Counted from the first letter of the stretch, positions 2,739 through 36,246 are shown. The stretch: 64,000 bases of DNA from Candidatus Poseidoniaceae archaeon (GCA_965662895.1 CBFIJH010000001.1:1-64000); one strand, 5' to 3'. A program made the numbers and translations. The notes: a model not told the origin generated them from the sequence alone.

Positions 2739-5700
2739 TGAAAGAACTTCGACATGCGTTCTTCAATGCTGGATTGTTGTTCTTCATCATCTTCCGGATT
2801 CATTTCCCTACGAATCGAATCCAATCGACCTGATGCACTTGCATTTTCAAGGACAGGTACTTCCTCGACCAAGGATGGTATCGACTCCTCTTCAATGTCA
2901 CTTTCTTGAGTTATTGCTATTTCTTCCTCATCGGAATCTTGCGGAGCAGGACTTGATTCTGTGGTTTTTGAAGGAGTCACTGCCGCTGTTTTCTTGTTCG
3001 TTTGTGCAGGGGTACTGGTGCGACTCGATTGCTTGTCCTGTCGTTGGACAGCAAACAAATAGATGCCTACAAGAACTGAGATAATCAGAGCACTCACCAA
3101 AACATTGGATGTGTTCAATGGCTGAGCCTCCTCAAGTTCAAAAAGAACAGAAGCGGTGTTATCGGACTCATCATCATCGATGTCAAATGGACTGTTGCAT
3201 CGTATCAGTGCTTCTAATTGCTCTTGGTCGTTAAGTCCTTCCGAATCGATGCGTATGTTGGGCGTAAAATCAGAACCAACAAAGCCGACAAGAACTTCTG
3301 CTTCGAAATCACTCTCTTTGCTGTTAACAGTAAGGAAGCATACTGCATCTTCGAGAACTTGGTAATTTGTTCTTGATAGGGCGACATTGATGCTTCCTTT
3401 TGCTGAGATACTGCTGATTCCTACATTCCATCCAGATTCCCTTGAGGTCACGACTTTCTCTAGACTTGAAACAATGTTTCCGAACTCATCATACACGGAA
3501 ATCATGATGGTTAAACGACCTGGTTGTGGGTCCCAATTAGAAACACTAACGTTGGCAAACGTTGACTGATTCTGCAAAACGGCAAATGTGGATTTGTTGA
3601 TTGGTATCTCCTCTCCTCGGTTTGTTGAAACAACGAACGAGAGTTTAGTGTTTTCATCAGAATCGCCCATGATGTCACAACTCACGATGTCACCTGTGAT
3701 CGGCTGTAATCCGAGACTGGAAAGGGCCTCATTTCTGAATGAGCAAGAGGCAGTTAACGATGGAGCATCCCGTCCAATAAGCACGAGTTGAATGGACTCC
3801 TTGGGACTACTAAGATTGAGATAATTCAAACCAGATGGGACAGTGAACGTATAGGTTGAGCCAGAGACAGAAACCATACTCCCTTGCAATTCAACGTTAT
3901 CGATATTGTCGATGTCTACTGATAACTGTGCTCCGGTACGGCCCGATAATACAGGGCTGCTCAAGGAAGAAATGTTCGAATGTTGTACGGTGAAATCTAC
4001 GGATTCGGTACCTAGAGAAGAGTGTGTTACTTGGACGGTTATCTGGAAGGGTATCCCATCCCAATTCTCTGGAGGGTTCAAATTGATGGGCATTCCTTCC
4101 ATCGCACCAGGCACAATTTGAATCGGTGAATCAACAATAGCAGTCCACCCAGATGGTAAGTTTGTTACCTCCAGTTCAAATTCTGGCAGATCATTACCTG
4201 TATTTTCTATCCATGCGAGAGGATAACCACCATTCTTCGAGACAAACCATACATCGGATGATTGAATTGAGTAATTTGACAATCCTGTGACACGAACTGG
4301 GACTTGAAACACTTCCATTCCTTGGCCAACAGCGTCCGAAACACGAATTTCGAGAATGTTGACATCGCCTTCTTGAGCATCCGATGGCGCTTCAACATAG
4401 ATGTCGACGACTTGGGATTGACCTGGCTCCATCAGGCTTCCCTCAGGCAACGATATGTTCCATCCTTGTCCGAACTTCGTCAAAAACGGAACCGAAGGTG
4501 TATTCCCTTTTTGTTCCAGAAGGACTTCAATGTAATCCCCCCCAGGCGTGATTTCGAGATCGCTGTTCGCTAGATTGAGATTCCATTTTGAATACTCAAG
4601 AACGTTGAGATCGATTTGGAATTGGTCAAGAACGTATCCTGAAGAAACGACTTGATAGGAAATGGTAGCAATCGCATCTTTCCAAGCATAAGGAATCTCT
4701 TGTACAACTGTCAAAGTAGCAGATTCATTCACGTCCAGCATCGATGAATGAATTGTTTGATGTGGTTGCCAAACTGCTGTATCGTTGTCCTCTGTGACAA
4801 CCGAGAGTGTCGGCACAAATTGGACATCATCAAGGTAGTTTCCGACGTTGGTAACATTGAATGTAAGCACGTGCTCAGTATTCGGTTGAACGTCCTGCTG
4901 TCCTCCATCTACAAGCACAATATCCCAGTCGTGGCGTTGTTCTGCTTCAATTAGCATCGTCGTTGTTGCACGAACTGAGGTATTGACTGTTGACGCCCAC
5001 TCGAATTCGAGATAAAACGGCACAGCAGCTGGTAAATTTTCTCGAAGTTCAATTTCCAATGGCATAATCGTCGTAGCCAAGGGGCTCAGCGTTCGTACTG
5101 GATTAAAGTAGGTAAATGTGACATCATCCGTGGTAACCATCTCAGTTGGTAGAACTCTTGCTTCAAATTCATAGGTGTCTTGCCCATTGCCAGGGTTTTC
5201 CAATTGGATGAGGATTTGATGAGGTGTGCTTACATTGAATCCGTGCGGAATGTTCGAATCAACCGGATCGATGACATTCAATGCTGCACGATGAATCTGC
5301 AGAACGTGTACGCTCAAGTCAAACGCGAGGTTTGAAGCAGATGATTGCTCATCGGTTTCAAAAGCCAACCGTTGTGGCGCTGCATTTGGAGGAATGTAGG
5401 CTTCAAGTTCGACGATGTGATACGAATTAGGGGAGCCACTCGCTTCAAGAATACCATTTTGCAATGTGGCGCCAGTCGTGACATTCCATTGCCAGTTTTG
5501 TAGGAACATGTTGGCTTGACCAAAATCCCAGTTGAGTGTTCCAGATTGTGGCAACATCATCCGAAATTCAAATACGTGATTCGAATCAGGGACCGTTCGA
5601 ATATGGGTCGGCGAGGTGTGCGAAAGAACAGATGTAAAATTAGCATCGAGTGATCGACAAAGTGTCTGCTCACCACTTCCAATGCATGTTGTTAGTGTTG

Positions 5701-9922: not shown

Positions 9923-10845
9923 CGCAGCACTCCATCGTTTGATAGCATCCAGACCTGTTCGTCTTTGAGCAGATGCTGAACGACAACCTCGTCATGATTT
10001 TGGCATTGAACTCCTTTTTCATCGAGCGATATTTCTTCGCGCCAGCCCGAGAGAATCCACCTTGATTCCTCGACGCTCAAGGCATGTTGGATTGGCCCTT
10101 TGGTTGCGATATCGGCAACACATTGCCCTGATTTGTATTGATAACAACGACCGTTGCTGAGCAGGAGTAAGCGTTCATCTTTCGTTCCAAAAACGTCGGA
10201 AAGCCCTCCATCGAGTTCAAAATGTCCGCGACCAATAACGGAACCGTTCTCTTTGGAGAGTCTTAGGCATCCACCTGCACGAGACCAAACTTCAACGCTG
10301 GTCTGTGTTTCATGAAGTGTGACAGTCTCTTGACTCATTGGAAGTTGGGCGAGTTCGGGCCACTCTGGAGGAGGTGCTCTCCACAGTTCAATTCCAGTCT
10401 TATCAAACGCGTAGACCCCTCGATTCCAGAGAACGAAGACAAATCCATCGTTCATTGTCGTCATTGCGAGTGGTTCAGCATCGAGGACATGTGCCCATGA
10501 TGCACCCTCGGGTAGAATCGCTTGTTCAAGAGAACGTGCAGTACGCAGGTCTCCCCGTTCAACCCCTTCGATGAACGGCCGGTCAAGAGGTAAACATCCC
10601 ATCCTTGCAATCAAAAGTTCACGATCAATCCACGTTGCAATCAGCACATCATCGACAATTATGGCCTGTTGGAAGGACATAGGAAAGGGTCGGGCATATT
10701 CCTCCAATGGCTTGAATTCAGCATCGAGTCGACACAGTTCACCATCGATTCCGATTGCTACGGCGTAGACACCCTCAACATTGGGAGTTTCGAGAATCTT
10801 CGTTGTTCGAAAGGGCAATTGTATCGAATGCATGCTTTCGACCAT
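9901..10845 (-). CDS. hypothetical protein, possibly beta-propeller (start uncertain: 10833/10845/10860)
   Basis: Long ORF with beta-rich repeats ([14 protein letters not shown]); 3' end overlaps rps27ae by 22 nt. Confidence 0.65.
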
Positions 10846-10911
10846 GGTTGGTCGAAACATCGGTTCTTTGTCAATACTCGCTTTGAAGAAGTGGTTGTGA
10901 CTGGGCAAACC

Positions 10912-11868
10912 ATGGCCGATGTTGTTCTTATTGCAGTGAACAGCGACGACATCGCTTCGACAAATCAAGCCAAATATCTACTGGAGCTTCACCCTTGGTC
11001 TCAACGGAACGATGTTGAATCCTGTTCCGTATACGCACATCAGAATGTACGCATGTGGTTCTTGCCAAAGCGTATTTTATGGGAAGATCACCTTGATGTT
11101 CGTTGGAATCAAGCAACCTCTGAAACTGTTACAGAAGTCATATTTCCATCGAGGCATTCGGCTGCGAGTGGAAAACCGTGTCTCACCATTCATCCGATAG
11201 GCGTACCTCATCTTCCCCTCGATGACGAACCTCCTTTTGGAGGAAGATCAGGATTTGCGCCCCCTCCAAGTTCACGAATGGCTCCTTGGTGGAGATTGCT
11301 TCACCAAAAGTGGGCGCAACGGTCAATTCCCGACTTTACATTATCACTTGAAGTAACGCATCATGGCCCAATTCTCGATGTACCTGCGCTCTTTATTGAA
11401 GTCGGCTCGACCGAGCCGTATTGGCCGAACGAGGATGCTGCCAAACTCCTCGCAGAAGTTATCTCAGATGGACTTGGCCTCGATGGCGAGGAAAAAATGG
11501 AATCATGGAGCGATGCGAACGAAGGTGAACCTGTCCTCATAACCCTTGGCGGTGGCCATTATTCTCCGAAAGCAAACAAATTGGCCCTCGAGTCCAACGT
11601 ATGGTTGGGACATATGCTTGCGAATCATTCACTTCCTTTTGGCGAACAAGATGCTCCCGGTGACTTATGGAAGCAATCAATCGATGCAATTCTCTTGTCG
11701 ACGAAGCGAGCATATCCAGGTGGACGTTTGGTTTGCAACGTTGAGAAAAAATCCTTCAAAGGATGGCAACGTCAGTTAATCTACAATCACCTTGAATCTC
11801 TCGGAATCGATGTTGTTCGTTCTAATGCTTTCTTGGAAATGGTCAAAAGATGTCGCTTGAAGCAATGA
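10912..11868 (+). CDS. dtdA: D-aminoacyl-tRNA deacylase (archaeal DtdA/GEK1 type)
   Basis: DIASTN, IFPSRHSAASGKPCLTIHPIG, SLEVTHHGP, PALFIEVGSTEPYW, LGGGHYSPK. Confidence 0.92.
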   Translation: MADVVLIAVNSDDIASTNQAKYLLELHPWSQRNDVESCSVYAHQNVRMWFLPKRILWEDHLDVRWNQATSETVTEVIFPSRHSAASGKPCLTIHPIGVPHLPLDDEPPFGGRSGFAPPPSSRMAPWWRLLHQKWAQRSIPDFTLSLEVTHHGPILDVPALFIEVGSTEPYWPNEDAAKLLAEVISDGLGLDGEEKMESWSDANEGEPVLITLGGGHYSPKANKLALESNVWLGHMLANHSLPFGEQDAPGDLWKQSIDAILLSTKRAYPGGRLVCNVEKKSFKGWQRQLIYNHLESLGIDVVRSNAFLEMVKRCRLKQ

Positions 11869-11884
11869 GAATGAGGGCACAGAA

Positions 11885-12853
11885 ATGATCTCGAGACTCA
11901 TCGTTGCAATGACGTTACGGATGCCAAGATGGTTTGTCCGTTGGGTTTCGCGACGTTATGTCGCTGGTTCGATACTTCAGGATGCAGTAGGTGTGATGAA
12001 ACGTTTGGAGTCCGAAGGAGCATGTTTTACAATCGACGTCCTTGGTGAAGAGATTTCATCAATGAGCGAAGCTCAATTTTTCCTCGATGAATATGTGCGA
12101 GTTATGAATGCAATTGTCGAGAACAATTTTGATGCAAATTTATCCATTAAGCCAACGGCTTTTGGTTTACTCATCGATAAGGAAAAAGGAATGGAGAACA
12201 TTGAATCCCTCGTAAAGCAGGCTGCTGCTCATGATATGTTCGTTCGATTGGACATGGAAGACCATCGTGTTACCACTGAGACAATTCAAGTCGTCGTCGA
12301 CCTGCATGAAAAAGGATTGACAAATGTTGGTACGGTTCTTCAAGGGCGTTTGCATAGAACTCCCGACGACATTGAAAATGTGGCTTCCAGTCTCGGAGGA
12401 AATGCCGATTATCGTATCTGCAAAGGCATTTATCTTGAACCAGAAAATATTGCATACACCTCAAGGAGCGATATTCGTGAGAAAACCAATGACGCGATTC
12501 GAATGGCCCTTGAGCAAGGAGCATACGTTGGTGTAGCATCCCACGACAAACCCGTCATCGACTACACGCTGAATGTTCTGAACGAGTTCAACATGGGTCC
12601 ATCCAAAGACGATCCTCGAGAAAACGCAGGTAGTCCAAGAAAAGGAAAAGGTCCGGGCTATGAGTTTCAAATGTTGCTTGGCGTGCGTGGCCCGATGCGT
12701 CGGGAGTTGATGAAGGCAGGTCATCGAACCAGAGTTTACATACCATACGGCGAGAAGTGGTATGAATACAGCATACGAAGGTTGCAGGAGAATCCTACGA
12801 TTGGGTTGCAAATTGCCAAGGCTTTCTTGATGCCATGGACCAATCGACCGTAA
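11885..12853 (+). CDS. monofunctional proline dehydrogenase
   Basis: RRYVAG, IDVLGE, LSIKPTAFGL, VRLDMED, RICKGIYLEP, VASHD, EFQMLLGVR, RVYIPYGEKWYEYSIRRLQENP. Confidence 0.93.
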   Translation: MISRLIVAMTLRMPRWFVRWVSRRYVAGSILQDAVGVMKRLESEGACFTIDVLGEEISSMSEAQFFLDEYVRVMNAIVENNFDANLSIKPTAFGLLIDKEKGMENIESLVKQAAAHDMFVRLDMEDHRVTTETIQVVVDLHEKGLTNVGTVLQGRLHRTPDDIENVASSLGGNADYRICKGIYLEPENIAYTSRSDIREKTNDAIRMALEQGAYVGVASHDKPVIDYTLNVLNEFNMGPSKDDPRENAGSPRKGKGPGYEFQMLLGVRGPMRRELMKAGHRTRVYIPYGEKWYEYSIRRLQENPTIGLQIAKAFLMPWTNRP

Positions 12854-28064: not shown

Positions 28065-29051
28065 ATGCGAAGAGTTGCTGTCACCGACGGGATGGCTCCG
28101 GAAGCAGTTAAGAGGCTTGAACAAGCTGGATGCGTCGTCATCCAAGAGTTCATCCAAGAGGATGCGCTTACCGCCGGAGCACTCGCTGAATTTGATGCTA
28201 TTATCGTTCGTAGTGCAACAAAACTCTCCGAAGAGATGCTCATACAGAGTCAACCTCGTCTCAAAGTGGTAGCACGTGCTGGTGTTGGTGTCGACAACAT
28301 CGATGTTGGGGCGGCATCAAAACTCGGATTACCTGTAGTGAACGCACCTCGCGCAAGTACACAAAGCGTCGTTGAACTCACTATAGGACACCTCCTTGGT
28401 TCACTGCGATTTATTCCGAAGGCGAATCGCTTACTGCGTTCCGGAAAGTGGGCCAAGAAGGAACTTAAAGGGACTGAACTTTTTGGAAAGCGATTGGGTC
28501 TACTTGGGTTTGGACGTATCGCACAAGGTGTTGCTAAAGTTGCACAAGCCTTTGGAATGGAGGTGCATTCTTACGACCCATATCTGCCTTCATCGGTTGC
28601 CAAGAAAGCAAATGTTACCATGCACAAAAACGTCGACAATCTCTTCAAAATTTGCACGCACATCTCGATTCATTGCAATTTGACTGAAGAAACACACCAC
28701 TTGATCAACGAACGGCGGATTTCAATGATGCCTGGTCTTGATCCGTTTAATCTCAGATGTGGTAATCACATCGTCAACTGTGCCCGAGGAGGCATCGTCG
28801 ACGAAGATGCAGCGCTCTCCGCCTTGGAGTCTGGCCAATTAACGTCTCTTGCTCTCGATGTGTTTGAACACGAACCCGTTGATGCTTCCTCGCCCCTTCT
28901 TCAACACGAGAATTTTCACGGCACACCACATATTGGTGCAGCAACAATCGAAGCCCAACAACGTGTTGGATTGGACATTGTCGAAGCTGTTCTCACCGTT
29001 CTCGATGGAGGAATGGCCGACACAACCGTCAACCGAAATGAACTCAAGTAA
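28065..29051 (+). CDS. serA: D-2-hydroxyacid dehydrogenase, phosphoglycerate dehydrogenase-like (no ACT domain)
   Basis: IVRSATK, RAGVGVDNID, GLLGFGRIA, VNCARGGIVDE, LDVFEHEP, TPHIGAATIEAQ. Confidence 0.8.
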   Translation: MRRVAVTDGMAPEAVKRLEQAGCVVIQEFIQEDALTAGALAEFDAIIVRSATKLSEEMLIQSQPRLKVVARAGVGVDNIDVGAASKLGLPVVNAPRASTQSVVELTIGHLLGSLRFIPKANRLLRSGKWAKKELKGTELFGKRLGLLGFGRIAQGVAKVAQAFGMEVHSYDPYLPSSVAKKANVTMHKNVDNLFKICTHISIHCNLTEETHHLINERRISMMPGLDPFNLRCGNHIVNCARGGIVDEDAALSALESGQLTSLALDVFEHEPVDASSPLLQHENFHGTPHIGAATIEAQQRVGLDIVEAVLTVLDGGMADTTVNRNELK

Positions 29052-29055
29052 CCAG

Positions 29056-29068
29056 TTTCACTTTTCAA
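29056..29068 (+). promoter_or_regulatory. candidate DNA-damage-responsive promoter motif TTTCACTTTTCAA
   Basis: Upstream of the PolB2 operon; TTCACTTTT also occurs upstream of the RadA-like gene on the minus strand (32508-32500). Confidence 0.4.
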
Positions 29069-29114: not shown

Positions 29115-29402
29115 ATGGGCCGAACAGTTCCGACGTGGCGTGGTCGTGTTGAGCAAGAGATTGAGATGCTGGTCCCGTACCGACGTGTGCTTTCAGCCGA
29201 TGATCAGCATCGCTTTGATGCAATGCTTCACGATGTACGAATACGACGCGCTGCGGGTGGTATGCTTCCCGTTCACGAAGCATGGAAACCCATGCTCCTA
29301 TCGATGCTTCTTGGCGTCCATGAGCGTATCCAGTTGCTCGAGGAACAACTTGCATTGCTTCAGAAGAACGCCCAGTCCTTTGGTGGGGAAGATGGGCGAT
29401 GA
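29115..29402 (+). CDS. small alpha-helical PolB2-associated protein (arCOG07300-like)
   Basis: MGRTVPTWR...YRRVLSADDQHRFDAM...LLSMLL...RIQLLE pattern typical of the small gene upstream of polB2; overlaps the PolB2 start by 11 nt. Confidence 0.8.
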   Translation: MGRTVPTWRGRVEQEIEMLVPYRRVLSADDQHRFDAMLHDVRIRRAAGGMLPVHEAWKPMLLSMLLGVHERIQLLEEQLALLQKNAQSFGGEDGR

Positions 29403-31788
29403 ATTCGTGGGGTGGATTCTCGATGCTCACCTCTGTTCGGCACAATTGGAAATGCTCGTATGGATTGTTTCAGAAGCGGGTCCAGTGATTTCATTTCGTG
29501 AGGCATGGCATCCGACTCTCCACGTGTCTGGGCATCCAGACGATCTTCAGAACTTGGCTGACTGGTTGTCGCAGCCAGAACTCCGTCTTCGTTACGGAGT
29601 TCAGCATTTTGCGTTTGAAATGAAGCGAACGGAGTTGGGGTCGTTTGATGCGAGGCATTTGCTTAGCATCACGCTCCGATCATGCGCAACATTACGCTCC
29701 TTAGCAGAACACATCGATGCACGAGGTGGACACGTTCGTTTTACGTTGTATTCGGTTGATGTACGACCAGAGCAACAGTATCTCACTGCGAAACGATTGA
29801 CCATTGGCTCGCCAGTGCAACTTCAGGACAATCAGTTGGTGCCGTTTGAAGGGAATTGTGAGCGAAGAGATTGGCGATGTTGTCGACTTGAGGTTGTTCT
29901 TCAGAAACATGGCTCTGGTTCAACATTGGTGAACCAACCGTCCAAAATCCGTGTCGTTCCATGCGACACGTCGGGTAATATCACTGGAACTGAATCCGTG
30001 TTCAAACTCTCCCAATACGGACAACTTTCCGCATTCGAACGGTGGTTCAGGAAGTTTGACCCCGATCTCGTTCTTTCGGTCCGTGGGAATACAGAAGCAT
30101 TCCCCCATCTTCTTTCCTATCTTGAGGCGAAGAACGTCGCGCTTCATCTTGGGCGTAATGACACGCCGCTTCGACAAATTGGCTCGACGCGAATTCTCTC
30201 GTCCTATGGCAACATTTTACGCAGCGACCCTCAGTTCCCTCTTGAAGGCCGTATTCACATCGACTTCTCTTCGAGTTTTATGTTTCGTGAAGGCGGGCTT
30301 GATGGCCTGTATGAACTCGCTCATGTTTCTGCTACACGCATCGGTGATGCAGCGAGAAAATCTCCTGGTTCGGTCATCAGTGCTATCCAATATCGGGTGG
30401 CGATGGAAGATGGTGTGCTCGTACCTTGGAAGAAGACTCGACCAGAAGACACGAAATCAGCTTGGGATTTGTTGCAGTCCGATCGTGGAGGGCTCTATCT
30501 GGACAGTCGTCCCGGTGTTTATTCAAACGTCATCGAACTTGATTTTGCAAGCCTCTTCCCAAGCATTATTGCAACACGTAATATCTCTCCTGAGACCCTG
30601 AATTGCAGTTGTTGTCAACCCACCGCGAACAGCCCACCTTTACCGCTCCATCCAGATGAAGCCAAGAAACGGTTTCAAGTACAGGAACATCAATGGAAAT
30701 CTGCGAGTCTCGCCTTTCCCCAACAGTGTTCAACTGCTTTTCAGGTTCCCGAGCTTATGACACATACGTGTGGACGGCGTCACGGATTTCTCGGTCGTGT
30801 TGTGGCTCCCCTTATCGAACGTCGCCGCCGTCTCAAACAACAAAGCGTTACCAAGGGTGATGCAGCAGATCGTCAACAAAATGCTCTCAAATGGCTGTTG
30901 GTTACCTGTTTTGGTTACACGGGTTATCGGAATGCACGTTTTGGACGAATTGAGGCCCATGAAGCCATATGTGCGTGGGCTCGAGAACTTCTTTTGCAAA
31001 CGATTGAACATGCACAAAAGCGAGGATGGGAGGTTTTGCATGCCATTGTTGATTCCGTTTGGATTCGAGATATGAAAGGACGTTCGCTTGAAGAGCAACA
31101 CGATTCCGCTATGGAATTGGCGCATCATGTGCATGCTGCTACTGGAATACCTCTGGAATACGAAGCCACATATCGTTGCATTGCGTTCCTACCCAGCCGA
31201 ATGCATAGTGGAGGTTCACTAACGAAATACTGGGCTTATGGGGATGCGGGTATGAAAGTCCGTGGTTTGGAATTACGGCAACACTCAACCTGTGCGTGGA
31301 TTGTCCGATTGCAGAAACAAGCATTGCAACTCCTTGCAGATTCAACCGATCTCGTCGACGGCATTCCGAGTTATCGTGAGCAATCTCGTGTTCGACGTCT
31401 TCTTCTTGATGCGGTGAATGAATTGGAACAACTGAAGATTCTTCCACGTGACTTGATTATTGCACAACGGATTTCCAGAAAACCGACATCAAATTCTTCA
31501 CAGACCGTTGCAATGGCCGCCTATCGACGATGTGAACATCTTGGCTTCCCGGTTGAAATGGCTTCCAAGGTTCGTTTTGTTGTTTGCCCGAAAGATCAGA
31601 GAAATCCATTGCAGCGCGTCCTTCTTGCTCAGGAATGTGAACATCTTACGCATCCCCTCCGTTCCATCGATGTCGATTATTATCGGCGCTTAGCAGTACG
31701 TGCAATATGGGCGATTTTGGGTCCGTTTGGATGGCTCGAAGACGACCTCCTCAAGCCATCAGTTGTCCGTCTTGATCGTTGGATGTAA
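29392..31788 (+). CDS. polB2: family B DNA polymerase, PolB2 group
   Basis: DRGGLY, motif A DFASLFPSII-RNISPET, motif B QNALKWLLVTCFGYTG, FGRIEAHEAICAWAR, variant motif C HAIVDSVW (for YGDTD), KVRGLELRQ; no recognisable proofreading motifs. Confidence 0.9.
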   Translation: MGDEFVGWILDAHLCSAQLEMLVWIVSEAGPVISFREAWHPTLHVSGHPDDLQNLADWLSQPELRLRYGVQHFAFEMKRTELGSFDARHLLSITLRSCATLRSLAEHIDARGGHVRFTLYSVDVRPEQQYLTAKRLTIGSPVQLQDNQLVPFEGNCERRDWRCCRLEVVLQKHGSGSTLVNQPSKIRVVPCDTSGNITGTESVFKLSQYGQLSAFERWFRKFDPDLVLSVRGNTEAFPHLLSYLEAKNVALHLGRNDTPLRQIGSTRILSSYGNILRSDPQFPLEGRIHIDFSSSFMFREGGLDGLYELAHVSATRIGDAARKSPGSVISAIQYRVAMEDGVLVPWKKTRPEDTKSAWDLLQSDRGGLYLDSRPGVYSNVIELDFASLFPSIIATRNISPETLNCSCCQPTANSPPLPLHPDEAKKRFQVQEHQWKSASLAFPQQCSTAFQVPELMTHTCGRRHGFLGRVVAPLIERRRRLKQQSVTKGDAADRQQNALKWLLVTCFGYTGYRNARFGRIEAHEAICAWARELLLQTIEHAQKRGWEVLHAIVDSVWIRDMKGRSLEEQHDSAMELAHHVHAATGIPLEYEATYRCIAFLPSRMHSGGSLTKYWAYGDAGMKVRGLELRQHSTCAWIVRLQKQALQLLADSTDLVDGIPSYREQSRVRRLLLDAVNELEQLKILPRDLIIAQRISRKPTSNSSQTVAMAAYRRCEHLGFPVEMASKVRFVVCPKDQRNPLQRVLLAQECEHLTHPLRSIDVDYYRRLAVRAIWAILGPFGWLEDDLLKPSVVRLDRWM

Positions 31789-32437
31789 CTCGCTTCAATG
31801 ATTGTCCAATGGTTTGATGATCAATCGGTTGAAGGTCGATGCGATAGCGTTCTTGACTGTTTGAGATATGGAGTCGTTTTCGATTTCGATCAGCCCACTT
31901 TCCTTGCAGTTTCTGGCTGAGATAAGGCCGCATGGTATGCTTGAGTTGATTATGCAGTGGTGATGTTGTCCGTCCATCAAGAATTACAACACTGCAATGT
32001 TTCGATACGTTCGCAAGACATGCTAAACAATGACGCAAAATTGAACGTGATTCAAATCGCTTAATTTGTTCGTCGAGAAACATCGCCATCATCCCATCGA
32101 TGACGATAATGGAAGCTCGCGTGAGTGCAACTTCGTGTTCGATTCTCTCGATAAGTGCATGGAGTTGGTGCAATGTGAAACCTCGTCCAATGTACAAGCG
32201 ACGTAAACTTTCTTCGATGGAACAATTCAATGCACGCATAGCTGGGAAAAATCCACAGGGGTCAAATCTGTGGCTTCCATCAATCCAGTGTACTGCATGT
32301 CCTTGAGAGAGAAGCAATGCAGTCCAATCCTGAACGACAGTACGGACCTCCTTGCCAAAAAACCCGGGTCCTTCAAACAGCGTTATTCCTGACGACGGAA
32401 TCTGCAACTCCTCACTGGTCTGGCTGACTGGAAACAT
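31751..32437 (-). CDS. degenerate RadA/RecA-like P-loop protein (PolB2-associated, ImuA-like)
   Basis: Walker A variant GPGFFGKE, WIDGSHRFDP, IGRGFTLHQL, Walker B IIVIDG; no N-terminal HhH domain; GGTGAG upstream. Confidence 0.8.
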   Translation of the reverse strand: MFPVSQTSEELQIPSSGITLFEGPGFFGKEVRTVVQDWTALLLSQGHAVHWIDGSHRFDPCGFFPAMRALNCSIEESLRRLYIGRGFTLHQLHALIERIEHEVALTRASIIVIDGMMAMFLDEQIKRFESRSILRHCLACLANVSKHCSVVILDGRTTSPLHNQLKHTMRPYLSQKLQGKWADRNRKRLHISNSQERYRIDLQPIDHQTIGQSLKRVTSNDQDGQLMA

Positions 32438-32546
32438 TCACTCACCGAGTATTGTCAATCGTTGGATTCAAACCATAGTGTTTTTCCAGAGGGTAATCAA
32501 AAAGTGAAGGATGAATTTCAAACACTGTCGACAATTGTAGTGACTT

Positions 32547-33659
32547 GTGCGCAATGAACGAATTCTGATCCATTGCGATCTTGATGCGTTTTTCGCATCC
32601 GTGGAAATTCTGCATCATGGATTTCCGGAAGACGAACCGCTCATCATTGGTTCCGACCCAATGCAGGGACGTGGACGAGGAATTGTATCAACATGCAATT
32701 ATGCGGCGAGAGAATACGGTGTTCGCTCTGCAATGCCGATTTCAGAAGCTTGGCGGAGGTGTCCTGGGCACCCATTTGGACCCGCTCGATACATCCGTGG
32801 GACACGTTCATTGTATTCGATGGCATCTCGTAGAGTTATGAAATTGTTACGAAATGCATCGGATAAATTTGAGCAAGCAAGTATTGATGAAGCCTATCTC
32901 GATGTGACGGAGAACGTTGGCAGTGACTGGGATGAGGCAATGGCACTTGCACGGCGCCTCCAGCGGAAAATTCAGGAACGGGTTGGGTTAACAGCTTCGT
33001 TTGGAATTGCCTCGACGCGTATTGTGGCCAAAATGTCTTCTGAAATCAACAAGCCAAATGGGATACATCGGGTCCTCCCCGACGAGATATCAGAATTTTT
33101 TGAACAAAGATCGGTTCGTGAGGTACCCGGTATAGGTCCAAAAACGGCCAGTGCTCTCGCAGAGTGGGGCATCACAACAATCGATGAGGCAGCAGAACTA
33201 GGCGAATTAGCACTTGGACGCATGACATCTCCAAGGTTTGCCTCATGGTTGTTGCGGGTCGTTGAGGGTTCAACCTCCAATGAAGTAAGTCCATTGCGAT
33301 CACGTCGCTCGATTGGGAAAGAGCGAACGTTTTCTCACGACCAAAGTGATCACGAACACGTGCTGCAACTGTTGGAACAACTAACGATTGGCGTCATGGA
33401 AAAAGCACGGACAGAGGGGATTGCAGGACGTTTGGCCGAAGTCAAGATTCGCTACACCGGATTTGAAACCCATACGCACGGTCGTTCAATTCCAGTTGCG
33501 ATGGATGATACGGAGGTCTTTTTGCGTCAAATTCGCCGACTTTTTGCTGAAAATGTTCATCAAGACGAGAACATTCGACTTATCGGTTTTCGTTTAGGAC
33601 AACTCGAAGAATTAGATTTCCGACAAACGACATTGGTATTCGATGATGAATCAGAGTAG
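32547..33659 (+). CDS. dinB: Y-family DNA polymerase IV (DinB/Dpo4)
   Basis: HCDLDAFFASVE, STCNYAAREYGVRSAMP, SIDEAYLD, AKMSSEINKPNG, VPGIGPKT, SIGKERTF, IRLIG; GTG start. Confidence 0.95.
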   Translation: MRNERILIHCDLDAFFASVEILHHGFPEDEPLIIGSDPMQGRGRGIVSTCNYAAREYGVRSAMPISEAWRRCPGHPFGPARYIRGTRSLYSMASRRVMKLLRNASDKFEQASIDEAYLDVTENVGSDWDEAMALARRLQRKIQERVGLTASFGIASTRIVAKMSSEINKPNGIHRVLPDEISEFFEQRSVREVPGIGPKTASALAEWGITTIDEAAELGELALGRMTSPRFASWLLRVVEGSTSNEVSPLRSRRSIGKERTFSHDQSDHEHVLQLLEQLTIGVMEKARTEGIAGRLAEVKIRYTGFETHTHGRSIPVAMDDTEVFLRQIRRLFAENVHQDENIRLIGFRLGQLEELDFRQTTLVFDDESE

Positions 33660-36113
33660 TTTGTGCATGCGTGTGAGCGTTTCTCGGAATGCTTCCAATG
33701 ATTCGGGAATGTCAATGCCAGTAATTTCAGCGTTGAGAGACAACCCGTTTTCCTTTTTGGTTTTCCAAACTTCGCTGTTGAATGCTTCAATGTCTGCAGT
33801 TTTTGCGTTCAGTTCAGATTGGATGCCCGGGACTCCAGGAAATGCATCCACATCCACAGCACTCGTCCCATACAACGTCATGGAGATGTGATGACAAAAG
33901 AATGGACACACTGGGCTAAATGCTGCAAGGAACTTTTGCAAGATCAAATGAATGGTCCACGCTGCATGTTCATCACCATCATAGAGTCTCGACTTCGCCA
34001 TTTCCAGCCAATGTGAGGGTAAAACACCCGTTCCAAAGGACTTGAGTGCTTGGGTTGCCGTGTAAATGTCGAGGTCCTTCCATGCGGATTCAACAGTATG
34101 CATCATTTCCGCAAATTCAGATTGAATCCATACGTCTTCAATCGGATAATCTGTTGATGGTTCGTGTTCAGGACGATCAAATTGGCTTGCAAAGCGAGCA
34201 ACATTGAAGATTTTTGTTAAGACGCCAAAATACTTTGATTCGATTTCTTCGGGGTTAATATGGAAATCATCACCAACTTGTGCTTCACAAGCTTTCCACA
34301 ATCGGAAACATTCACTTCCAATTTTGTTCGCTTTTAGTTGGACAGAACCATCGGGACCACGGACTTTCCATGAACCGGTTCTTCCTCCTGCTCCGCACTC
34401 AAGGACGCTGTCAGCATCGATTCCATTGCCCAATGATTTTGACATTTTGCGACCCCACGGATCCATGCCAAGTCCATCAATCCAAACGTGCTTAAAACCA
34501 GGTTTGTCGAGTAGGAGTGCAGATTTCAGGAGCGTGTAATACAACCATGTTCGAACAATTTCTTTGCCCTGTGGTCGCAATCCAGTGGGAAAGGCATTTT
34601 CAAAAACTTCTGGTTGGTTCAAGTATCCACTCACGAAAAGATTGGAATTTGAAGAATCCATCCATGTGTCAAAGACTTTTTCTTCGCCCCGGATTGCACC
34701 CATTTCGGATACAAGAACCGAATACAAGCCGATATCTTCTCGTGTGTCTCGTCGCAATACTCTGGAGCCTTCTGGAGGTGAATCTTTCCATGGTTGTACA
34801 TAGGTTCCGGCCGGAGGTACAATGATGTGCGTTTCATCTTCTGAATACCAAATTGGAATTTCCGTGTGGTACCAACGCCTGCGAGAAATTGGCCAATCGA
34901 TGCTGATGTTTTCCATCCAGTCCAGCAAAAATTGGCGATTGCGAGGCGGATGGAATTCAATTTCCTGAACCAGTTCTAGAAGACGATCTTGAACGTGGGT
35001 TTGGCGAACGTACCATTCTTTGAGGAGAATAATTTCGACAGGATTTTTTCCCCTTTCGGAAACTGGAATCTCTTGCTGACGTTCTTCGATGGAAACAATG
35101 TGGCCATTTGCTTCAAGCAATTCGATGGCCTTCCCCCTTGCTTCGATAACTTTCAATCCCTCCAATGGGCCTGCAACCGAGGTCATGCAGCCGTTCAAGT
35201 CAATAGCTTGGTAGGGAGACAATGCAAGTTCCCTGAACACAGCCACGTCGTTTTGATCACCAAAGGAACAGACCATGAGAATACCACTACCGAAATCAGA
35301 TTTCACAGACGGATGCGTTTTGATTTCGACGAACGCTTCTCGTCCATGGACAGGCATTGGTAGAAGAACGCGTTTCCCTACGAGGTGCTCATATCGCTCA
35401 TCATCGGGATGGACAACAACCACACCACATGCGCAAATCATCTCAGGTCGGGTTGTTGATATGACCAGTTCCTCGCCATCCTCTGTTTTCCATCGGACGT
35501 CCACAAGTTTTGTTTTCCGTCCAACGCGCTCAACTTCTGCATCCGCGATTGTCGTTCCTTCCACTGGATCGTAGATGTTTGGACGCAAATCTTCAACGAT
35601 ATCTCCTTTCTTGAAGAGTTCAATAAAGATCGATTGCGTGACAGAGCGGTAATCTGGAGCGTCGGTCAGATATTCTGCTGCAAAATCACAGGATAATCCA
35701 ACGCGTGCTGCAGTTTTTCGCATGGCCTGAGTGAAGGTTTCGATGGTTTCCCTGCACAGGTCCAGAAATTCTTCTCTATCGTAGGTTTTCATCTTGCGTT
35801 TGGTATTTTTTTCGACCGTAAATTCGATGTTGATTCCGTTTCGATCGACTCCCCAAGGAAAGTAAACCTCTTTTCCAAGAAGACGTTGTGAGCGTGCGAG
35901 AACATCAATCATCGAGTACTGGGCGACTGCTCCAATGTGCCACGTTCCTGAGGGATATGGAGGAGGCGTATCAATCACAAAAATTGGTTTCCCGCTTTCT
36001 GGTTTGAACCCATATCGCTCTTGATACAGGTTTTCGTTCGCGTAATGCTCCTCTTGGATTTTCTTTTCGAGGTCAATTGACCATCGTTTTTCCGGAAGTC
36101 GTGGTGATCCCAT
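33651..36113 (-). CDS. valS: valine--tRNA ligase (archaeal type)
   Basis: IDTPPPYPSG, HIGA, STTRPE, DWPISRRR, VFDTWMDSS, RPQGKEIVRTW, KMSKS. Confidence 0.95.
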   Translation of the reverse strand: MGSPRLPEKRWSIDLEKKIQEEHYANENLYQERYGFKPESGKPIFVIDTPPPYPSGTWHIGAVAQYSMIDVLARSQRLLGKEVYFPWGVDRNGINIEFTVEKNTKRKMKTYDREEFLDLCRETIETFTQAMRKTAARVGLSCDFAAEYLTDAPDYRSVTQSIFIELFKKGDIVEDLRPNIYDPVEGTTIADAEVERVGRKTKLVDVRWKTEDGEELVISTTRPEMICACGVVVVHPDDERYEHLVGKRVLLPMPVHGREAFVEIKTHPSVKSDFGSGILMVCSFGDQNDVAVFRELALSPYQAIDLNGCMTSVAGPLEGLKVIEARGKAIELLEANGHIVSIEERQQEIPVSERGKNPVEIILLKEWYVRQTHVQDRLLELVQEIEFHPPRNRQFLLDWMENISIDWPISRRRWYHTEIPIWYSEDETHIIVPPAGTYVQPWKDSPPEGSRVLRRDTREDIGLYSVLVSEMGAIRGEEKVFDTWMDSSNSNLFVSGYLNQPEVFENAFPTGLRPQGKEIVRTWLYYTLLKSALLLDKPGFKHVWIDGLGMDPWGRKMSKSLGNGIDADSVLECGAGGRTGSWKVRGPDGSVQLKANKIGSECFRLWKACEAQVGDDFHINPEEIESKYFGVLTKIFNVARFASQFDRPEHEPSTDYPIEDVWIQSEFAEMMHTVESAWKDLDIYTATQALKSFGTGVLPSHWLEMAKSRLYDGDEHAAWTIHLILQKFLAAFSPVCPFFCHHISMTLYGTSAVDVDAFPGVPGIQSELNAKTADIEAFNSEVWKTKKENGLSLNAEITGIDIPESLEAFRETLTRMHKLL

Positions 36114-36246
36114 GCTAAACACCGGCCCAGGCCCCAGTTACCGGGGGGGTCCAATGTGTCCTGTTGGTGTAGGTTTTTCAACGGTTCCCTCACATCTAAA
36201 CGGCAATGCTTTCAATGAAGGACTCGAGGCGATGTTGGGCTGCATC

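Follow-up and report, generated by a model that had tools for sequence, protein, structure and literature searches.

We analyzed a 64,000-nucleotide (nt) stretch of the genome of a Candidatus Poseidoniaceae archaeon (GCA_965662895.1, CBFIJH010000001.1:1-64000; referred to below as the window), in which positions 29,115 to 33,659 hold four adjacent genes, encoding a small helical protein (PPB2), a B-family DNA polymerase (PolB2), a RadA-like protein (iRadA), and a Y-family DNA polymerase (DinB). The original prediction treated the four as a single module. We consider it highly probable that they are instead two things lying side by side: the known three-gene PolB2 mutasome cassette, and a resident, independent dinB. 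A single four-gene module is contradicted by related genomes, where dinB stays in place without the trio at 6/6 loci and the trio moves without dinB at 7/7.

The trio is the published PolB2 mutasome module

PPB2 (arCOG07300), PolB2, and iRadA, the three members of the published PolB2 mutasome, correspond respectively to the small helical protein, the B-family DNA polymerase, and the RadA-like protein encoded here. The association of PolB2 with arCOG07300 and an inactivated RadA was described in 2014 (Makarova et al., PMC4104785), and in 2025 the trio was modelled as a PolB2-iRadA-(PPB2)3 "mutasome" predicted for 40 species (Timinskas et al., PMC11791011). Each sequence or fold feature of the module that we checked was found here, so the earlier assignment of the trio to PolB2, arCOG07300, and an inactivated RadA holds.

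Open reading frame (ORF) calls confirmed that the four genes exist where the original prediction had placed them. PPB2 (29115..29402, plus strand; 95 amino acids [aa]) is followed by PolB2 (29392..31788, plus strand; 798 aa; Pfam DNA_pol_B, 3e-26). The two ORFs share 11 nt on the same strand, which would be the usual sign of translational coupling. iRadA (31751..32437, minus strand; 228 aa) is convergent to PolB2, and their 3' ends share 38 nt (31751-31788). A divergent gap of 109 nt (32438-32546), the length given earlier, separates iRadA from dinB (32547..33659, plus strand; 370 aa, GTG start). The polymerase ORF is open from 29107, and a start at that position was dismissed: alignments with family homologues begin at residue 1-7 of the product that starts at ATG 29392, and for this reason PolB2 is taken as 29392-31788. 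We also rejected a recent transfer of the locus, based on a GC content of 0.47-0.51 over the locus versus 0.44-0.49 in the flanks, with no base-composition anomaly.

Alignment to the Pyrococcus abyssi PolB bore out the altered motif C and the lack of clear exonuclease motifs that had been noticed in PolB2. Motif C reads HAIVD where the P. abyssi enzyme has YIDTD, so that the first Asp is replaced by Ile and the second is retained; motif A (DFASLFPS) is likewise conserved, as is the lysine of motif B. Across 15 PolB2 sequences of the phylum, no variation was seen in the His and second Asp of motif C, in motif A, or in the motif B lysine. The Exo II region (RGNTEAFPHL) was the one part of the exonuclease domain that could be aligned, and its Ala falls where we take the catalytic Exo II Asp to be; the PDB chain used for comparison also has Ala at this position. 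The first ~210 residues of PolB2 align to no solved PolB; the Exo I region does not align, and neither Exo I nor Exo III was positively located. The 3'-5' exonuclease active site thus appears to have been lost. The protein ends in a PIP-like motif, VVRLDRWM, and PolB2 C termini in the order end in a (T/S)LxxF/W-type motif. The genome encodes one other B-family polymerase, on contig C15.

The 95-aa ORF has no match in Pfam or NCBIfam. Its N terminus, MGRTVPTWR, carries Arg3 and Arg9, which are kept in 12/13 aligned homologues; the thirteenth alignment row is an orphan copy aligned without its N terminus. An "MGRT" arm with Arg3 and Arg9 is named as a key PPB2 feature (PMC11791011). The structural model (pLDDT 86.5) has three predicted helices (8-24, 28-45, and 57-93), which together with the 11-nt overlap agrees with the earlier description of a helical protein overlapping PolB2.

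iRadA is weakly recognizable by sequence (Pfam Rad51 E 1.4e-3, below the cut-off; PDB RadA E 0.096) and is identified by fold. Its model has a pLDDT of 80.5, and the Foldseek PDB matches listed, through rank 50, are all RadA, Rad51, or DMC1 (E ~1e-9, TM ~0.66). The protein lacks the RadA N-terminal domain and consists of the ATPase core alone. As stated in the original prediction, this convergent RadA-like core has a Walker A of GPGFFGKE, with E in place of S/T, and the motif drifts among homologues (GDGRHGRR, GEGRAGAS). Several iRadA proteins bear QETLxxS(F/Y).

DinB is a conventional Pol IV

The fourth gene encodes a Y-family polymerase with domain matches to IMS (5.8e-38), IMS_C (2.6e-21), and IMS_HHH (4.2e-6). 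Its DLDAFFASVE and SIDEAYLD align with their counterparts in a Pol IV of known structure (PDB 7yll), and it passes the NCBIfam Pol IV equivalog PRK02406 with 268.4 bits against a cut-off of 256. The intact DLDAFF and SIDE motifs reported earlier are therefore confirmed, and DinB is, judging from these alignments, catalytically intact. It is the only Y-family gene found in the genome.

DinB favors bacterial-type Pol IV models over the Sulfolobus Dpo4-type (PRK02406, 268 bits; PRK01216, 167 bits), and it holds two small insertions relative to the solved Pol IV, at approximately residues 36-43 and 74-86. At the C terminus, a conserved RQxTL (RQTTLVF here; QATLEAF and QVTLERF in two relatives) is followed by an acidic tail and resembles the clamp motif QxxLxxFF, which makes it a candidate clamp-binding site. 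Complex prediction for iRadA with DinB, run twice without controls, yielded no result (score 0.00 each time) and weighs neither way.

Among the loci surveyed, dinB is linked to the cassette in one family only

The original prediction singled out the linkage of dinB to the trio as a feature not well described. We searched 151 genomes of the family, including the window's own (G000), and found PolB2 in 94 (E <= 1e-20) and DinB in 136 (E <= 1e-10); PolB2 and dinB coordinates were then compared by hand. The linkage stood up in relatives, being present, on one contig and the same strand, in 68 of the 90 family genomes that have both genes. The gap between PolB2 and dinB in these genomes is 0.76-1.2 kb, or 3.2 kb in one of them (G054). 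By genus, the two are linked in 24/25 genomes of g1, 12/12 of g3, 23/27 of g10, 9/14 of g12, 0/11 of g11, and 0/1 of g8. In a further 46 family genomes, dinB gave a match but PolB2 did not, and in 4 the reverse was seen.

Outside the family, the linkage was not found. In a survey of the phylum (301 genomes), the sister family has PolB2 in 4/22 genomes and dinB in 3/22, never in the same genome. No dinB lies within 6-7 kb of PolB2 at any of 20 loci of other families in the phylum; 16/20 of these loci have iRadA and/or PPB2 nearby, co-directional with PolB2. Likewise, dinB is present in the PolB2 flanks (up to 7 kb; some contigs are short) at 0/80 loci of other archaeal orders, drawn from Thermoplasmata, Methanomassiliicoccales, Methanoperedens, Methanosarcinales, and Halobacteriota. 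Here iRadA was found at 71 loci and a small ORF matching the PPB2 hidden Markov model at 70, all co-directional, with the order iRadA-PPB2-PolB2 at 71/80. The 20-locus and 80-locus sets overlap and are not additive. PolB2 also occurs on 110 haloarchaeal plasmid records; among 4 of these plasmid loci that we inspected, an annotated dinB is nearby in 0/4 and an Orc/Cdc6 gene in 2/4. The dinB linkage is real and, among the archaeal loci surveyed, confined to one family.

The enriched PolB2 neighbors reported are orc1/cdc6, lexA, SRAP, and DUF72 genes (PMC11791011). dinB is not named as a PolB2 neighbor in the main text of that paper, and its Supplementary Table S1/data file 1 may list it. Among the literature matches listed, no paper dealt with PolB2 along with either Poseidoniales or Marine Group II.

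serA, dinB, and valS form a conserved chromosomal backbone

The cassette and dinB are flanked in the window by a serA-like D-2-hydroxyacid dehydrogenase gene upstream (28065..29051, plus strand; Pfam 2-Hacid_dh_C, 1.1e-50) and a valS-like class I aminoacyl-tRNA synthetase gene downstream (33651..36122, minus strand; Pfam tRNA-synt_1, 5.2e-74), neither of which is part of the module. A tblastn survey of window proteins on 20 fetched loci showed one conserved gene order throughout the family: a protease, a membrane protein, serA, dinB, valS, and an RND transporter, with valS adjoining dinB in the family loci that extend that far. The trio lies between serA and dinB in the window and in five other genomes (G003, G012, G030, G033, and G054). 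serA and dinB are direct neighbors in 6/6 loci (L005, L006, L010, L012, L015, and L016) from genomes where the trio is absent (G098, G110, and G001) or located elsewhere (G073, G074, and G008). Because the trio is variable and serA-dinB is kept without it, dinB is the resident gene. The earlier statement that four genes were inserted between serA and valS thus applies to the trio, which sits between serA and dinB, and fails for dinB, a backbone gene.

Seven cassettes occupy other sites, five in the family and two in the sister family. They have the same internal layout, none has dinB nearby (7/7), and their flanks have almost no genes in common. In the PolB2 tree, the other-site cassettes of g8, g10, g11, and g12 (L009, L011, L014, and L023) form a 100/100 clade across genera, whose sister group (95/96) consists of the linked copies of g12. 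Linked PolB2 copies from different genera branch deeply. Between genera, identity is 42-47% for PolB2, 63-70% for DinB, and 71-77% for valS. The presence of this second PolB2 lineage in unrelated chromosomal contexts across genera suggests that the three genes have been transferred horizontally together. Parsimony favors a single old insertion next to dinB that was then inherited vertically and lost in places, plus a second lineage dispersed by horizontal transfer; this is not a demonstrated history.

The convergent coding 3' ends of PolB2 and iRadA overlap, by 4-150 nt, in 10/10 cassettes of the order with both ORFs called (the window, L007, L008, L009, L011, L013, L014, L018, L021, and L023). 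Because of this overlap, the PolB2 and iRadA transcripts must overlap antisense. Two irregular loci were seen. In G054 (L022), two membrane-protein-like ORFs (368 and 262 aa; 10048-11993) split the cassette between PolB2 and iRadA, leaving both genes intact. In G006 (L017), an orphan, intact PPB2-like ORF of 92 aa lies inverted between serA and dinB (4661-4939, minus strand), with CACTTTCACTTTC ~65 nt upstream, and two unrelated ORFs occupy the rest of the gap. PolB2 was found in 0/9 genomes searched from the genus of G006.

A conserved element precedes both cassette transcription units

A conserved TTCACTTTCACTTT element, which includes the hexamer A(N)TTTC, precedes both transcription units of the cassette. 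Ahead of PPB2, the element CAGTTTCACTTTTC (29053..29066, plus strand) starts 62 nt before the ATG and 2 nt past the serA stop codon. Ahead of iRadA, a copy, TTCATCCTTCACTTTTTGA (32497..32515, minus strand), has the core TTCACTTT at plus-strand positions 32501-32508. The core is upstream of both genes, 64-71 nt from the iRadA ATG and 39-46 nt from the dinB GTG, and its orientation is opposite to that of dinB.

Across cassettes, the element takes the form TTCA-N2-3-TTCACTTTCA, often as a tandem CACTTTCACTTT, in otherwise unalignable DNA upstream of PPB2 and iRadA. Its core is CA-N-TTTC-AC, in which N varies among cassettes (AGTTTC, ATTTTC, ACTTTC, and AATTTC). We counted matches against 111 control upstream regions from the same loci, for which gene starts are rough, bearing in mind that the cassettes are kin. 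TTCACTTT is found upstream of PPB2 in 9/13 cassettes and of iRadA in 7/10 (plus 3/3 with loosely placed starts), against 0/111 controls. CANTTTCA is found upstream of PPB2 in 11/13 cassettes and of iRadA in 4/10 (plus 3/3 with loosely placed starts), against 2/111 controls.

The hexamer is the one known from Sulfolobales, where a damage-response element, 5'-A(N)TTTC-3', is bound by Orc1-2 and is non-palindromic (PMC5817253, PMC6061795). Both groups have it upstream of dpo2-type genes. The Sulfolobales element is positioned -23 to -55 from the ATG, whereas the element here starts 62-65 nt before the ATG, spans ~14 nt, and is longer, usually a tandem TTCACTTTCACTTT. A bare A(N)TTTC match is also present in 16/111 control upstream regions, so the likeness is a lead only. 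No clear copy of the element was seen upstream of the genome's two Orc1/Cdc6 genes (contigs C3 and C11).

Nor is the element restricted to the cassette: it also stands upstream of unlinked ORFs in G000. A matrix built without the window's genus had its best matches in that genome at C9:12483, C9:58982, and C13:542. Behind these matches are three unlinked ORFs (197, 58, and 79 aa) with a tandem TTCACTTTCACTTT 62-65 nt before the ATG, comparable to the 62 nt at PPB2; Pfam gave no match for any of the three. The 197-aa gene (C9:12483) is preceded by a TFB gene and a 91-aa ORF. It has homologues in 40/61 family genomes and bears the element in 24/24 fetched loci (L131-L154), 5 of them from genomes without a PolB2 match. 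For its product, ESM Atlas offered WD40/beta-propeller leads only, at 0.90.

Outside the order, CANTTTCAY occurs upstream of iRadA at 13/80 loci in the sense orientation (2 of the 13 rows having the same sequence context), at 0/80 in antisense, and in 17/800 random windows, which hints that the element may be older than the family. At these loci (L040, L041, L048, L050, L068, L069, L081, L084, L086, and L090-L093) it reads CA(C/T)TTTCA(C/T), often followed by a C-rich run.

dinB has a proximal element of its own. In the window this is GAATTTCAAACAC (32513..32525, plus strand), 22-34 nt before the GTG, probably the core promoter of dinB. A TTCAA(A/G)(C/A)AC-like element is seen by eye at the same distance in most of 14 dinB upstream regions. 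It is present in the cassette-free loci L005, L006, L010, L012, L015, and L016 and not obvious in L017 and L020. Cassette-free genomes, also judged by eye, lack TTCACTTT upstream of dinB. Since dinB has this proximal element in cassette-bearing and cassette-free loci alike, and TTCACTTT is missing from the latter, dinB does not belong to the element's gene set in its own right.

Discussion

The picture that best accounts for these observations is of a mobile translesion module that came to lie beside an ordinary polymerase gene. PPB2 and PolB2 would be translationally coupled, and iRadA would have a separate promoter and be transcribed toward them. PolB2, as a homologue of Sulfolobus Dpo2, is expected to act as a B-family polymerase without proofreading that elongates primers ending opposite lesions. 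The trio would work as the PolB2-iRadA-(PPB2)3 complex of the published prediction, probably tethered to PCNA, and may be induced by damage. DinB would be an ordinary active Pol IV encoded in the conserved serA-dinB-valS backbone. The cassette presumably entered the serA-dinB gap early in the family, was inherited there, and was lost in some lineages, while a second cassette lineage came to occupy sites elsewhere on the chromosome, without dinB. PolB2 and DinB may well act together at lesions, as is open to any pair of translesion polymerases that share a clamp; co-tethering to PCNA would be the simplest route to such cooperation.

Several observations pull the other way. The cassette adjoins the sole other translesion polymerase gene of a ~1.9-Mb genome, a coincidence that makes a functional link tempting. 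Only 39-46 nt separate the iRadA-side element from the dinB start, so that shared control is possible, and in genus g1 the proximal element of dinB itself holds AATTTC. Of the 22 unlinked genomes, 3 (G139, G116, and G124) are probably contig breaks, and counts across kin genomes are not independent. The backbone of the PolB2 tree is unresolved, with 4/10 inner branches open, and for this reason a single old insertion is the parsimonious reading only.

One alternative is that the four genes are nonetheless co-regulated, with the 109-nt divergent region placing dinB and iRadA under one damage control, PPB2-PolB2 governed by a like element, and DinB and PolB2 acting as an inserter/extender pair. 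The adjacency kept across four genera in the 68 linked genomes, the compact iRadA-dinB gap, and a conserved element so close to the dinB start, holding the hexamer recognized by Orc1-2 in Sulfolobales (PMC6061795, PMC5817253), all favor it, as does the literature on Dpo2, an extender whose partnership with another polymerase was posed in print as an open question (PMC8764526). We nevertheless think it unlikely. The whole region is syntenic, so retention of the pair needs no selection for adjacency; the horizontally moving cassette lineage never brings dinB; and dinB keeps its own proximal element throughout and lacks the iRadA-side element in cassette-free genomes. That element is directed away from dinB, and its Sulfolobales counterpart is non-palindromic. 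In Sulfolobus islandicus, moreover, dpo4 is not damage-induced, and its loss leaves targeted mutagenesis unaffected (PMC8764526). The inserter/extender complex of DinB and PolB2 put forward in the original prediction is not supported, and as an open question the idea was already in print.

A stronger version would make DinB a physical fourth subunit or hub, in the manner of ImuB in ImuA-ImuB-DnaE2 or Rev1 with Pol zeta. Adjacency and analogy are what recommend it, along with the RecA-binding motif borne by many bacterial Y-family polymerases (PMC11791011). An obligatory subunit is hard to reconcile with the 46 family genomes that have dinB without PolB2, or with PolB2 occurring without dinB in 4 family genomes and in 4/4 PolB2-bearing genomes of the sister family; at no locus surveyed outside the family is dinB near PolB2. 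The published models for 40 species require only PolB2, iRadA, and three copies of PPB2 (PMC11791011), and the catalytic motifs of DinB are intact, unlike those of ImuB. We regard a subunit role as extremely improbable. A different departure from our reading is that PolB2 is a catalytically dead relic acting only as a scaffold or regulator, as was originally held from 2008 to 2014. The replacement of the first Asp of motif C by Ile and the loss of the exonuclease site favor this reading, which is stated in PMC4104785. Dpo2 of S. islandicus, which carries the same kind of substitution (IID at motif C), is an active extender required for damage-induced mutagenesis (PMC8764526, PMC11791011), and the 15 sequences compared all keep motif A, the lysine of motif B, and the second Asp of motif C. 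A dead PolB2 is thus very unlikely.

Among known systems, the locus is closest to the PolB2 mutasome operon, with which it shares the IVD of motif C and a degenerate exonuclease domain in PolB2, the three-helix fold and MGRT arm of PPB2, an iRadA core that lacks the N-terminal domain and has a disrupted P-loop, PIP-like C-terminal motifs on PolB2 and iRadA, and adjacency of the genes. It differs in the direction of iRadA, which is convergent here (10/10 cassettes of the order) and co-directional in 71/80 other-order loci. As in Sulfolobales, with Dpo2 and Dpo4, the genome has one PolB2, the expected extender, and one DinB-type Y-family polymerase. In Sulfolobales, however, Dpo4 is dispensable for targeted mutagenesis, and the DinB described here is nearer to bacterial-type Pol IV models.

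The bacterial mutasome comprises ImuA, a RecA-like protein; ImuB, a catalytically dead Y-family hub; and DnaE2, a C-family error-prone polymerase. The likeness lies in a RecA-fold protein without normal ATPase motifs beside an error-prone polymerase of a replicative family. The analogy drawn in the original prediction breaks down beyond this point: the polymerase is B-family (Pfam DNA_pol_B) rather than C-family, the Y-family member is predicted to be active and is not obligatory, and PPB2 has no Imu counterpart. In print, the module has been likened to Pol V (UmuD'2C-RecA) and Pol zeta (PMC11791011), in that a polymerase is combined with a small oligomeric accessory protein and a RecA/Rad51-type protein, and an extender with an inactive proofreader. 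For Pol zeta with Rev1 and Y-family inserters, the resemblance stops at DinB, whose distribution argues against its being a fixed partner of PolB2.

As a record of the module, the locus matters little, since it adds one uncultured archaeal genome to an arrangement described in 2014 and modelled in 2025. Its value lies in its relatives: linked, other-site, and cassette-free genomes within one family make a natural comparison set for co-regulation of an inserter and an extender. In addition, an element common to both cassette units and an unlinked gene provides a concrete sequence that bears on A(N)TTTC-type damage responses outside Sulfolobales. TTCACTTTCACTTT could be this lineage's counterpart of the Orc1-2 element, defining a small damage regulon of both cassette promoters and at least one unlinked gene, the 197-aa one, into which dinB is drawn where linked, although we judge this proposal quite unlikely. 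If it is true, this reading would make dinB and PolB2 a co-induced inserter-extender pair in those members of the family where the two are linked.

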